In this document: positions 9,168 to 50,429 of the stretch, piece by piece
How the letters are laid out: each line of letters opens with the position of its first letter
How positions within the stretch are numbered: position 1 is the first letter of the stretch
Assembly (NCBI GenBank): GCA_964016885.1
Contig: OZ024742.1
Span: 135,780,001-135,844,000 of the forward strand
Direction of reading: 5' to 3'
From: Eledone cirrhosa
Taxonomy: Eukaryota
Length of the DNA stretch: 64,000 nucleotides
Program-made: the position numbers and the translations under genes
Notes under the pieces: model-generated
What the model was told of the DNA's origin: nothing
Database searches by the model: none
Seen by the model: only the letters and a program-made list of their open reading frames with translations

Positions 9168-9356
9168 AACGACGGAAATGTGGTAAGGAACCAGGTGGAC
9201 CATAACGCACCAAAGTACTCAATACTTAGGGTAGTAGAGTGGGTAATAGGAACGAGTAGGACCCCGAGGGCTGAGCTCAAGCCGGTTCGACGGCCAATTC
9301 TGGACTTAGCCGTCGAAACGGCTTGAGCTCAGCCGTCGGGGTCCTACTCGTTCCTA
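9168..9356 (-). mobile_element. Family A PLE-type end: tail plus fold-back inverted repeat centred in HHR stem II
   Basis: Arms 9247-9295 and 9308-9356. HHR 3' half GTCGAAAC-GGCT-tgagctc-AGCC-GTC-GGGGT. Flanked by TA repeats; 8 copies in the window. Confidence 0.85.
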
Positions 9357-9388
9357 TATATATATATATATATATATATATATATATA

Positions 9389-9546
9389 CGTTTATCCCGG
9401 GTTCAATAGGGGGTAACCACAGTAAGTAAGGTACTCAATACAAAGCAGAGTATAAATATTTAATATAGAAATCATCAGCAAAGCCCTGATGATTTCTTCC
9501 GAATGAAGCAGTTCTAGTCTTGTAGAAGCCATTTCTATATTAGATA
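9389..9546 (-). mobile_element. Short PLE-type inverted insertion with tail stem-loop (9433-9451)
   Basis: TATTTAATATAGAAAT (9457-9472) is inverted at 9531-9546. CTGATGA occurs on both arms. Tail reads ACTC-TGC-ttt-GTA-TT-GAGT on the minus strand. Confidence 0.6.
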
Positions 9547-9739
9547 CACACACACACACACACACACACACACACACACACACACACACACACATATATA
9601 TATATATATATATATATATATATATATATATATATATATATATATATATATATATATATATATATAAAGCTCTACAGGTTCATTCTGTCATTACAACACC
9701 AGCGGTCAGCGAGCTTTTGTTCCAGAGTCGGGCTAGATC

Positions 9740-9842
9740 GATACGGATCGAACTTTGGGCTGATTAATAGCGAAACGCGCGTTACTACTCAATAATCGTA
9801 ATGAATACATAACAACCCGTCCTCTTATTATTGTTATTTTAA
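9740..9842 (+). mobile_element. PLE-type end with HHR 3' half
   Basis: TAGC-GAAAC-gcgc-GTT, with a palindromic stem III (AACGCGCGTT) typical of minimal PLE hammerheads. Confidence 0.4.
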
Positions 9843-9894
9843 ACACACACACACACACACACACACACACATATATATATATATATATACATAT

Positions 9895-9981
9895 AACGAA
9901 GGAAGAGAGGTAAGGAGCCAGATGGACCATAACGCACCAGAGTACTCAATACTTAGGGTAGTAGAGTGGGTAATAGGAAAA
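9895..9981 (-). mobile_element. Family A tail-only copy
   Basis: GGACCATAACGCACCAGAGTACTCAATACTTAGGGTAGTAGAGTGGGTAATAGG is near-identical to the 9168 copy. Confidence 0.85.
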
Positions 9982-46200: not shown

Positions 46201-47727
46201 TGTGTGTATGTGTATATATATATATATATATATATCTATATGTTTTTCTATTTGTATATGTATGTGTGTATAGGTATATACCTGTATGTGTATATATCTG
46301 TATGTGTATGTATGTGTATTTGTATGTGTATATATATATGTATATATATATATATATATATATATGTTATATATATATATATGTATATGTATATGTGTGT
46401 GTATGTGTATATATATATATATATATATATATATATATCTTTTTCTATTTGTATATGTATGTGTGTATAGGTATATACCTTTCTCTTTGTATTTCTAAGT
46501 TGTGTGATAGTGTAGTGGTGTTTGTATGTATATACCGATATATAGATGCGTAAGTATTTGTCTGTATGTGTATATATGTAAGTCTGTATATATTTGTGTG
46601 TATATATAGCTATGTATGTGTATATCTGTATGTATATTAGTATGTAAGTGTTGTATATGTGCATGTATGTGTGTGGTTATATATATCTGTGTCTATATAG
46701 TATGTGTAATTATATGTATATGTGTGTGTATATGTACGTGTATGTACATATATGTATGTATATGTATATATATATATATATATATATATATGTATATATA
46801 TATGTATGTGTATTTGTATGTATATGTGTATATGTATGTATGTGTGTATATGTATATGTTTATATATGTGTGTATATGTATGTTCTTAGTGTGGATGTGT
46901 GTATATGTATGTATGTGTTTATATATATGTGTGTATATTTATGTATGGATATGTGTGTGTCTATGTGTATATATATGTATGTTTTTGTATATATATATAT
47001 GTATGTGTGTATATATATATATATATATATATGTATGTGTATATATGTGTATATATATATATATATATTTATTTTCTTGATATATTTCTTTTTTCTTTTT
47101 TCTTTTTTCTTTTTTCTGTTTTTCTTTCTATTCTTTCCTCTTTAATGCTTTATTTATTATATTTTATTGTTTTATTTTTTTATTTTTTCTTAGTTTATAG
47201 ATACATTTATATTAGGCAGTCTGCTCAGACAGTTGAATACTGACCCCTCCCCCCCCCCTCCCACCTAATTTCTGTATCTTGATCTAAAAATGTGTGTGCC
47301 AGTGTTTTATGTGAGTGAATTAATATCCATGTGCTTATGATTTTATATCCACATATATAAATGTGAGTGGGGGTGTGTGTGTGTTTGTATGTTCGTGGTT
47401 ATGTGTATATTTATGCATATACGCGCGTGTATGTGTGATTGTACGGATATGTGTGAGTATGAAAAAATATATTTATATACTTGACTTCATAAGTGTCAAT
47501 ACGCATCTTATCTGCGCATTGTAAGCTTACAGAGACATTAACCTTGAAATTTTGTATTTGCATCCATCCTTTTAGTATGCGTATACAAATTATACATACA
47601 TTTTTGTAAAATATGTGTAAGGGTTTTACATGTATATACACACACCGAACTGCATTTAACCCTTTGTGTTTTCATTGGTCAATTTTGAACTGAAATTTTG
47701 AATTGTTGTTATTATCAATAAATATAC

Positions 47728-47882
47728 TTCATTATTTCTGAAGACGGCGTATATATGTGTTTGGTATGTATGTTTAATCTTGATAATTTGTATAATTTTG
47801 TATAATTTTGTACATAGATCTGTTGAATATGCATACCAATTCTAACACATATATATCCTAGAAACGATCGTTAAATAATGAA
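47728..47882 (+). ncRNA. Type I hammerhead with ~116-nt stem II (mirror copy 36404-36558, minus strand)
   Basis: TTCATTATTT-CTGAAGA-[long hairpin TATATATGTGTT...AACACATATATA]-GAAAC-gatc-GTT-AAATAATGAA. Confidence 0.8.
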
Positions 47883-48899
47883 CTTTTTTTGTTTAATATA
47901 AGGAATTGTTTATTCATTATTTGTTTAATATTTTATATATATATATATATATATATATATATGTTTGTGTGTATAGACATATATATGTATGTATATATAT
48001 ATATATATATATATATATATATATATATATATATATATATATATATATATATATATATATATATATATTTGTATAGCAGGGTTGAGAGTAAGCCTGAGAA
48101 GCTACTCTCTTATAAAAATGGCTTGCATCTCACATAGTTTCTGACGGCGAAGCCCAGCTTCTAACCTTTTCATGGCGGAGTTGTTTGCAATTGACGAGAA
48201 GAAAGGGCAAAGACTGGGTATCGCTACAATAAAAACAGTTTTTCCAGATAGATAGAACTCGTCAACTTCGAGTGGCAATCTCTCTAGCAAAAGTGTCACT
48301 CCTTTAAATTCAGAATTGGAGTAGGGTGAACACCTTAGTCATAATTATGACAACTCGTGTTCAGAATCTCAGAAGTCCTCCTGGTTACTATCATGACGGG
48401 CATTATGCCCAATAGGACTAAAGGTGCTTGAGCTGATGTTACGCCATTCTTCTAAGGAAAAGAAACTTTAAAGTATAGCCTGTGGCTTACGTGATTACTG
48501 GTCATCTTGTTTGTCATCAAATAATAGCGTCTGAGGCTTAGAGAGAGGGACTAGTGTTGTACATGTATTTTTCACCATAATCCATTATGTACAGATATCT
48601 ATTTTGCAATTTTCTCATCTGTTATTCAATCTCTCCAGCCAGGACTCTAAATTCCTGACACCATATAGACATTGGCGCTGTTGCTCCAACTAGCCGTGTG
48701 TTACGAGAATTTGTACCGATGAAATACAGCTATGGTTTCGCTACCCAGGGAGACTTAGTATTGTTAATGACAGTGGTGTGTGTCCCCCCCCCCCATTTCA
48801 TCTTTGTCAGTGTGTGGTTGTAGACTGGCAGGAATGTCTGCGGTGAAGGTGGAGTTCAGACGTCGAACATCAGATGAAGCAATCATCATATAAATATAT

Positions 48900-49460
48900 A
48901 TGTGTGTGCGTGAGTGTGTGTGTGTGTGTGTGTGTGTGTGTGAGAGAGAGAGTATGTGTGTGTGTGTGTGTGTGTGTGTGTGTGTGTGTGTGTGTGTGTG
49001 AGAGAGTATGTGTGTGTGTGTGTGTGTGTGTGTGTGTGTGTGTGTGTGAGTGTGTGTGTGTGTGTGTGTGTGTGTGTGTATGTGTGTGAGTGTGTGTGTG
49101 TGTGTGTGTGTGTGTGAGAGAGTGTGTGTGTGTGTGTGTGTGTGTGTGAGTGTGTGTGTGTGTGAGTGTGTGTGTGTGTGTGTGTGTGTGAGTGTGTGTG
49201 TGTGTGTGTGCGTGTGTGTGTGTGTGTGAGAGAGTGCGTGTGTGTGTGTGTGTGTGTGTGTGTGTGTGTGTGTGTGTGTGTGTGTCTGAGTGTGTGTGTG
49301 TGTGTGTGAGAGTGTGTGTGTGTGTGAGTGTGTGTGTGTGTGTGTGAGAGTGTGTGTGTGTGTGTGTGAGAGAGAGTGGGTGTGTGTGTGTGTGTGTGTG
49401 TGTGTGTGTGTGTGTGTGTGTGTGCGTGCGCGCGCGCGTGTGTGTGTGTGTGTGTGTGTG
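48900..49460. repeat. Long compound (GT/GA)n microsatellite
   Basis: Direct reading; one of dozens of TA/CA/GA tracts in the window. Confidence 0.95.
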
Positions 49461-50242
49461 TCTGCCATATATGTCGGCATATAAGGCTACCGATACAGCC
49501 AATCTACCGATGCTGCCAATCTACCGCCATCATTCACATTATTATGATAAAATAATAATAATATGTGGGTGGCATGATTGCACGACAATAAAAATATGCA
49601 TATTCGCCTATTCGCCAAAAGAGAAATCCAAAACCATCATCATACACAGTAAACAAAACAACTACTGGCCTTGGGTCCTTTAAAGCTCTCCGCCAGATTG
49701 TATGGATGTTATTAAATACATTAAACTATTTCAAAATGTATTATCTGTAAACAATTGACAATTAAATATCAAATTTCATAAATTGGTATTTTTTAAAGTA
49801 ATATCAGCATTGTTTGCAATTACAACAGCTGGTCGTGTTATCATTACCGGGTAGCAGTAATTGTACAGGGTGGGTTATGGAGGAGAACGGTAAGTGTAGA
49901 TTGTGTTAAATAATTGAGAATATCTCCCCCACAGTTTTTTTCATTAGAATTTGAGTTAAAGAAAGTATACCCTTATTGAATTTGATTAATACATTCAATA
50001 TAATACATTTTAAAATACGATCTGGTGGGTTCGTCTTGTACAGCGAACCTACATTTTAACTTGAAAATGTTGGGGTCATCTCATACGCCAAGACGTTTTG
50101 TACGCCACCATATACGGGATATAGGATAGATATATATATATGTGTGTGAGTGTGTGTGTGTGCGCGCGCGCGTGTGTGTGTACGTGTGTGTAAGTTTGTT
50201 TGAAATAGAAATAGAAGCTTTCGCTGTATATATATATATATA

Positions 50243-50429
50243 TCGAAGGAAATGTGGTAAGGAACCAGGTGGACCATAACGCACCAAAGTACTCGATACT
50301 TGAGGTAGTAGAGTGGGTAATAGGAACCAGTAAGACCCCGACAGCTGAGCTCAAGCCGTTTCGACGGCTAATTCAGAATTAGCCGTCGAAACGGCTTGAG
50401 CTCAGCTGTCGGGGTCTTACTGGTTCCTA
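50243..50429 (-). mobile_element. Family A copy with perfect palindrome (50321-50429, 54-bp arms)
   Basis: Centre GCTAATTC-a-GAATTAGC. Tail at 50243-50320. Confidence 0.9.

Follow-up and report, generated by a model that had tools for sequence, protein, structure and literature searches.

Bulged stems beside the ends of inverted Penelope-like insertions in the Eledone cirrhosa genome

RESULTS

Inverted insertions between (TA)n runs

The stretch analysed here, hereafter the window, comprises 64,000 nucleotides (nt) of the Eledone cirrhosa genome (assembly GCA_964016885.1, contig OZ024742.1, forward-strand positions 135,780,001 to 135,844,000), a microsatellite-rich genome of 3.0 Gb. Masked self-BLAST of the window (an unmasked repeat search was swamped by microsatellites) revealed short and long inverted repeats sitting between (TA)n runs. 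These inverted insertions are Hydra-clade Penelope-like retroelements (PLEs). One arm carries a tail, here ~75-135 nt long (tail-plus arm), and the other lacks it (tail-minus arm); a bulged stem (stem 1) marks the boundary between tail and body. The copies of families A to G in the window are as follows.

9168..9356, family A inverted insertion: tail-plus arm 9168-9306, minus strand; tail-minus arm 9307-9356, plus strand
9217..9240, minus strand, stem 1 of this family A copy
9390..9546, family B insertion: stem 1 at 9433-9451, minus strand; tail-minus end at 9546 joins (CA)n
9895..9979, minus strand, family A tail-plus arm stopping ~12 nt past stem 1 (stem at 9944-9967)
10923..11112, family C inverted insertion: tail-minus arm 10923-10972, minus strand; tail-plus arm 10975-11112, plus strand; stem 1 at 11029-11053
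16904..17021, family D insertion, arms without overlap: tail-minus arm 16904-16958, minus strand; tail-plus arm 16961-17021, plus strand, starting within the stem 1 loop
23440..23657, plus strand, family D tail-plus arm; stem 1 at 23573-23618
28962..29493, family E inverted insertion: stem 1 at 29017-29052, minus strand; tail-minus end at 29493
30656..30835, family A inverted insertion: stem 1 at 30706-30729, minus strand
33615..34158, family F inverted insertion: stem 1 at 33667-33706, minus strand; hammerhead cores at 33775-33811, minus strand, and 34058-34094, plus strand
34416..34544, family A insertion: stem 1 at ~34465-34488, minus strand; a tail-plus arm, stopping 9 nt past stem 1, is joined to a longer tail-minus arm
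36215..41663, minus strand, family G tail-plus arm: stem 1 at 36265-36345; hammerhead core at 36422-36548
41669..47936, plus strand, family G tail-minus arm: hammerhead core at 47738-47864
41669-43282, plus strand, 5'-truncated open reading frame (ORF) for reverse transcriptase (RT) and GIY-YIG, 99% identical to the full 813-aa ORF
50244..50429, family A inverted insertion: stem 1 at 50291-50314, minus strand
56009..56147, minus strand, family A tail-plus arm extending further upstream; stem 1 at 56058-56081
58997..59123, minus strand, family A tail-plus arm; stem 1 at 59046-59069

Family G (36215-47936) is young and has a 6.4-kb tandem unit with a single 813-aa ORF, which encodes an RT and, C-terminal to it, a GIY-YIG endonuclease (EN). 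Compared with the Hydra motif set in section 11 of PMC8557442, the protein has an RWK-like RWR (37-39), DKT (for DKG) at 115-117, a CxCX5C linker (C673-C675-C681) and CxH (C799-H801), without CCHH; its CxxC (C771/C774) is intact in the window copy and has S in the L091 copy (2645-5083). Insertion into (TA)n likewise agrees with the clade, as do the canonical hammerheads of the pseudo-long terminal repeats, the cores of which are present in families G (~60 nt upstream of the first boundary), F and J; that of family A is degenerate. The structure model of the G protein (predicted local distance difference test, 82.7) had telomerase RTs (TERTs) as its top fold matches, and a PDB sequence search returned a single weak match to a retron RT. 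Pfam gave no match for the 5'-truncated window G ORF. Rfam returned only microsatellite-driven matches under the gathering score, with no hammerhead among the matches listed (150 of 283). Identity as a Naiad PLE, which would have an EN at the N-terminus, a CxC linker, DKA and no hammerhead, was rejected: the EN is C-terminal, the motif is DKT rather than DKA, and a hammerhead is present. Coding support extends to family A (L026, EN end read by eye) and family D (L216, ORF start), and families B, C, E and F can be placed in the clade by shared anatomy alone. Family E occurs elsewhere in the genome as a 656-nt tandem unit. Family F is a short, ~325-nt element with the same 5' end, within 1 nt, in 25/26 two-armed loci, which had been picked for full cover of the probe.

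The tail-minus arm ends just upstream of stem 1

Read in the sense direction of the element, the stem has the form RCTC-N2-4-loop-N2-4-TN-GAGY. A strict version of this pattern matched the repeat-stripped window 18 times, against a mean of 2.9 and a maximum of 7 in 30 shuffled versions. The original prediction for this locus held that the tail-less arm ends just 5' of the stem, and this rule was borne out both by the window sites and by near-invariant ends genome-wide. For each site we aligned the tail-minus arm to a tail-bearing arm and took the offset as the shortest distance from the last matching base to RCTC. Offsets were 5 nt at 9356 and 50429, 4 nt at 34158 and 47936, 2 nt at 16904 and 1 nt at 29493. 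The arm ending at 9546 has an offset of 5 nt and, after one mismatch, runs into (CA)n; that at 10923 has an offset of 4 nt, blurred to 0-4 by a single mismatch. At 34544 the tail arm of the same copy ends 9 nt short of the stem (sense direction), and the offset of 5 nt was accordingly taken from family A. Nine of the ten offsets listed originally thus held, at 1-5 nt before the stem, whereas 30835, where the copy's own tail arm has 3 extra bases, lies at 8 nt and not at 5-6. As had also been anticipated, TA microhomology blurs the exact values: 2-6 nt match (TA)n, and the true starts may therefore lie that much further upstream. The copies at 23573, 9895, 56009 and 58997 bear the stem and have no partner arm in view.

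Genome-wide ends are bimodal and paired

Relative to the stem, the predicted bimodal distribution of tail-plus and tail-minus ends was seen genome-wide, among the best 40 hits per probe (not a census), with ends positioned by reference to the stem and not scattered independently of it. A family G probe upstream of the boundary yielded 16 tail-minus, 11 tail-plus and 2 read-through sites (29 loci listed out of 30). The G ORF probe yielded 14, 16 and 3, respectively (33 of 40 hits fetched; the window's two hits and five in loci already counted were left out). No G arm of 33 stopped at any of 25 intervening internal (TA)n runs, 8-56 nt long. The 131 G boundary sites read were all tail-minus, tail-plus or tandem read-through (40/131), and the tail-minus junctions were letter-identical in 40/42. 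Tail-minus offsets were also counted in family A (5 nt in 25/29, 9 nt in 3), family F (4 nt in 21/26, 7 nt in 3, 8 nt in 2), family E (~1 nt in 16/18) and family D (within ~2-8 nt in 10/11). The minor F ends, at 7 and 8 nt, track local TA, as microhomology priming within a fixed window would.

Every one of the 26 outward-facing G clusters with both ends typed paired a tail-plus with a tail-minus end. Additional tail-plus sites lie inside two of these clusters, and another four clusters could not be assigned. The same one-of-each pairing was found in families A (28/28), F (26/26), D (10/10) and E (14/17), with probes that contained the tail, so that minus/minus pairs were invisible and plus/plus pairs detectable. 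The three E exceptions, two of which are the same locus, are tandem read-through and not tail-plus pairs. Genome DNA searches, which skip common words, were empty for a short F probe and for family C; incidental copies were the only ones seen of families B, C, I and J. Four contig runs gave weak agreement only, with loose (TA)n ends in X4 and X5 at the tail-plus site of G. Extra (TC) units at F tail-plus ends were considered as slippage and rejected (6/16, against a background of 44/169).

A second stem follows the tail-plus end

Tandem copies, which read through the tail-plus end, revealed a second stem (stem 2) after it, at 5 nt in family G, 3 nt in family D (L216) and 6-7 nt in family E; families A, B, C and F yielded no read-through copy. 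Since stem 2 lies just after the tail-plus end, the tail is the interval between two stems. The original prediction was right about the boundary at stem 1 and missed the second stem, which does the same for the tail-plus end. An intron-like stretch (about 184-258 of the G unit) sits inside the loop of stem 2. The G arms of L050, L168, L198 and L257 begin inside the tail, at unit positions 113-123, a possible transcription start.

Twin stems, which lie between the hammerhead and the gene, also occur in other Hydra-clade elements. From 119 homologous proteins we obtained 77 metagenome loci, 54 leaders of sufficient length and 44 non-redundant leaders. At least one stem was present in 42/44 and at least two in 29/44, where shuffles gave 3.9 and 0.1; owing to the partial symmetry of the motif, the reverse strand scores as well (23 and 7). 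Twin stem starts are spaced 55-83 nt apart (29 pairs, three off-register hits dropped). The first inner pair was intact in 66/70 stems (C-G in 42, T-A in 20), against a mean of 52.2 and none of 5000 reaching 66 in shuffles that ignore kinship, in a count made without demanding pairing in the search. Slid partners paired in only 2-9 of the 70 stems. The first bulge base was T in 68/70, the CTC:GAG pair probability exceeded 0.5 in 52/74 folded instances, and the bases after the stem (NCTNT) were conserved as sequence. TAT/ATA ends 3-5 nt upstream of the stem in 24-28 of 71 instances, versus 1-10 at other offsets; the TA-rich character noticed just 5' of the window stems corresponds to a conserved patch 3-5 nt before stems. 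Internal same-family ends in metagenome contigs fell 2-8 nt before stem 1 or stem 2 in 17/21 cases, a tally that leans favourable, as one contributing probe sees only ends close to the stem. Rfam gave one chance match on 10 metagenome loci, so that no family covers the stem there. One leader (L266:455-472) has a (TA)9 run just 5' of stem 2 in an otherwise continuous copy.

Palindrome centres and arm lengths differ between copies

Palindrome centres were distinct in 22/24 family A and 23/26 family F insertions, and in diverged A copies (L024, L025, L027-L030) both arms share 3-5 subfamily changes; each palindrome was therefore made anew. Among 19 typed centres of family G, the tail-minus arm exceeded its partner in length in 10, fell short of it in 8 and matched it in 1. 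In the window copy it exceeds the tail-plus arm by 968 nt at the 5' end; that this arm and the tail add up to one unit length was dismissed as coincidence, the arm's 5' end being at unit position 1128. The 41 G junction rows comprised 20 with microhomology of 1-8 nt, 1 blunt, 14 with insertions of at most 35 nt and 6 larger or unresolved. Arms do not overlap in L052, L067, L127, L197 and the window insertion at 16904-17021, and in several insertions a tail-plus arm stopping inside stem 1 is joined to a tail-minus arm with which it shares no sequence. Tail arms stop between -21 and +28 of stem 1 in 12 of 38 incidental A copies, some of whose loci overlap the window. Such stops fit two enzymes on one RNA, the second of which stalls at the point where the first had started, later deletion being also possible.

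Several further features were noted at the 5' side. At the arm junction of L127, a family F centre, a 32-nt unit of the 5' hairpin is repeated ~9 times, amounting to reiterative synthesis on a template at the 5' joint; the centres of window 41645-41679, L108 and L199 show shorter duplications. 5' truncations cluster at G unit positions 6196-6218 (L046, L054, L060, L188) and at -59 to -72 in family A, that is, at the hammerhead 5' core and the stem II loop, respectively, which suggests stalling at RNA structure. G copies with a full ORF start at -62 (L255), -67 (L254) and -54 (L239), near the predicted hammerhead cut ~60 nt before the boundary, and may have had hammerhead-cleaved RNA as template.

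The (TA)n target pre-exists

Usable empty paralogous sites were available for two insertions among the entries listed of 112 two-flank entries. The family A element of L192 sits within a (TA)n run that itself belongs to a family G element, the 3' region of which offers many such targets; the run measures ~23 + 20 nt when filled versus 15-31 nt at 32 empty paralogous sites. This one clean empty site establishes that the (TA)n target pre-exists. In L004 the filled run spans ~107 nt, against 6-42 nt when empty. The median length of the runs flanking G ends is 26 and 28 nt, versus 15 in the window. The excess may reflect target duplication, preference for long arrays, later slippage or addition. 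The original prediction held reiterative TA addition to be conceivable and proposed a comparison of filled with empty sites; extra length was found, for which duplication of the target is an equally good fit. A repeat of the final template bases precedes (TA)n at D tail-plus ends (L202, L208, L222) and at tail-minus ends (L202, L145), as initiation slippage would give.

Other features in the window

The remaining features are listed below. Family J, as well as family I in other loci, has the same kind of stem; family H has no evident bulged stem and possibly represents another PLE clade.

15572-22652, minus strand, broken Helitron (Pfam Helitron_like_N; helicase-like frames by eye)
31688-32762, RT ORF fragments resembling a long interspersed nuclear element (LINE), by eye
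34179-34350, 51262-51512, 53473-53580 and 61370-61630, further hammerhead families I and J
55811-55990, 8895-9092 and 56833-56887, family H hammerhead-like repeat
61852-62809, minus strand, degraded Hydra-like ORF pieces (79% DNA identity to G over 90 nt)

DISCUSSION

The positions of both ends are probably set in the RNA, where each stem would position one RT start, primed by one of the two cut (TA)n target strands. The GIY-YIG domain would nick both (TA)n strands, and each nicked 3' end would anneal by 2-6 nt to the UA patch before one stem, stem 1 setting the tail-minus start and stem 2 the tail-plus start. The two complementary DNAs (cDNAs) would then stop independently, or at a shared RNA structure or the RNA 5' end, and their 3' ends would be joined via microhomology or short templated insertions. 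One protein dimer may make both starts on one RNA, although this step is weaker. A fuller version, which we put forward tentatively and regard as doubtful, would have an RT dimer docked on one RNA via two arginine-binding bulges like that of the trans-activation response element (TAR), starting both cDNAs at once, one from each strand of a cut (TA)n array, and adding TA repeats by slipping on the UA patch before copying on; this would be a telomerase-like initiation registered by RNA structure, in telomerase's sister group.

The closest biochemical counterpart is PAc, a Poseidon PLE from Anolis that, according to the parts of PMC11167929 drawn on here, nicks and extends both strands in vitro, its RT starting at two internal sites that bound the tail. 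An AT-rich target is common to both systems, as would be a predicted dimer, the use of both strands and two internal starts. PAc belongs to a different clade and starts in an AC-rich stem loop inside the ORF (PMC11167929), whereas the starts proposed here lie in the 5' leader, at a TA patch before each of two conserved stems. Several points weigh against starts set by the stems. The PAc start site is reported not to be homologous to the cut DNA (PMC11167929), and all the evidence presented here is DNA sequence, with genome counts drawn from best hits. Offsets range over 1-9 nt in this genome, blurred by microhomology. Stem 2 is visible in only 3/7 window families, those with a read-through copy. 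Pairing beyond the first inner pair is weak (41/70, again with shuffles that ignore relatedness), four of the 21 metagenome ends lie elsewhere (L278 at 12, L300 at 62, L261 at 83 and L309 inside the tail), and the non-overlapping arms could also result from later deletion at the palindrome centre.

Could the stems, or their double-stranded DNA form, instead recruit the GIY-YIG EN, which would cut the element's cDNA or DNA at the TA patch and leave ends that are cut sites of a resolved intermediate? PMC8557442 ascribes the tail 'most likely' to EN-mediated resolution, PMC11167929 cites that recognition by the D. virilis EN depends on the tail, there is a resemblance between TA patch and target, and NCTNT is conserved as sequence. 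We nevertheless think this unlikely, as C-G/T-A changes that compensate each other across a variable-length loop indicate a single-stranded fold, many tail-plus arms end within stem 1 or shortly after it (12/38), like a polymerase at an obstacle, and both PAc sites were shown to be RT starts (PMC11167929). An RNA cut or ending just 5' of each stem, with ordinary target-primed reverse transcription from those 3' ends, would account simply for the fixed ends, and hammerheads show that these RNAs are processed. However, the G hammerhead site lies ~60 nt upstream of the first boundary, tandem read-through is common (40/131 G sites), an RNA ending before stem 1 has no stem, and strict one-of-each pairing would require two RNA species recruited in fixed pairs; PAc starts, moreover, stayed put when the template 3' end was extended (PMC11167929). 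This route appears improbable. Endonuclease or RNA cutting had been named as the alternative in the original prediction, and both are weakened here, though DNA alone cannot decide.

The remaining alternatives concern how the second arm arises and why its end is fixed. A single cDNA from the tail-plus site, copied until the base of stem 1 and then jumping to the other target end (fold-back), would produce the near-symmetric centres seen in family F (20/26 within 10 nt) and most A insertions (within ~12 nt). As a general route it is largely refuted: in 10/19 typed G centres it is the tail-minus arm that is longer, the difference often reaching kilobases, certain arms have no sequence in common, and centres with loops of 0-2 nt and no microhomology occur (L007, L019, L101, L118). 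Fold-back, very improbable overall, could survive only for some short symmetric copies. Fixed ends from one pre-formed copy per family, the outcome originally named as refuting, or priming wherever the RNA has TA homology, would match the TA patches at both ends. Master-copy amplification is excluded by the distinct centres (A 22/24, F 23/26) and the 3-5 subfamily changes shared by the arms of diverged A copies, and the far better TA runs inside the element received 0 of 33 arm ends. These counts refute this pair of alternatives, which retain practically no probability.

Stem-positioned initiation invites comparison with other systems. The template boundary of telomerase marks where copying stops and enables repeat addition. 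By analogy, RNA structure beside the template would fix the copying register, as proposed here; the PLE stems are located 3' of the region that is copied and would mark where copying begins. Likening the stem to a 'template boundary', as in the original prediction, is in this respect loose. LINE-1 twin priming likewise has two target 3' ends that prime two cDNAs and give an inversion. There the position of the second start varies and the parts are free of overlap, whereas here both starts are fixed and the arms usually overlap. The stem also resembles, in secondary structure alone, the arginine sandwich bulge of 7SK ASM3 (arginine sandwich motif 3) and TAR described in PMC6189040, with a Watson-Crick pair, a U-first pyrimidine bulge and G-C, A-U and G-C pairs in common; a difference is that the helix closed by the loop is the other one.

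The elements share with the Hydra clade, as described in the portions of PMC8557442 used here, (TA)n as target, copies both in tandem and inverted, a tail confined to one end, RWK-like, DKT, CxCX5C, CxxC and CxH motifs, a C-terminal GIY-YIG and a hammerhead. Published members are mostly below 3 kb with tails of 30-40 nt, compared with the 6.4-kb G unit and the tails measured here, and those portions do not mention stems, ascribing the tail to endonuclease resolution. The consensus Hydra-2_Amil has one such stem near its 3' end (by eye), and the hammerhead row of L282 is that of Penelope-1_NV. Our search of open-licence literature found no published description of twin stems. The boundary rule is real, within a known clade, and the twin RNA motif is apparently undescribed.

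The one-sided tail and the inverted copies of PLEs are stated as an open question in the parts of PMC8557442 and PMC11167929 consulted. Starts set by stems, if true, would explain the long-noted one-sided tail. A short twin motif predicts both ends within a few bases across dozens of unrelated families, which makes the tail question mutationally testable. It provides a rule for annotating element ends and short non-coding derivatives, as well as a candidate protein-binding site for structures of telomerase's closest mobile relative. If the stems set starts on any RNA, they would constitute a compact signal for directing this enzyme.

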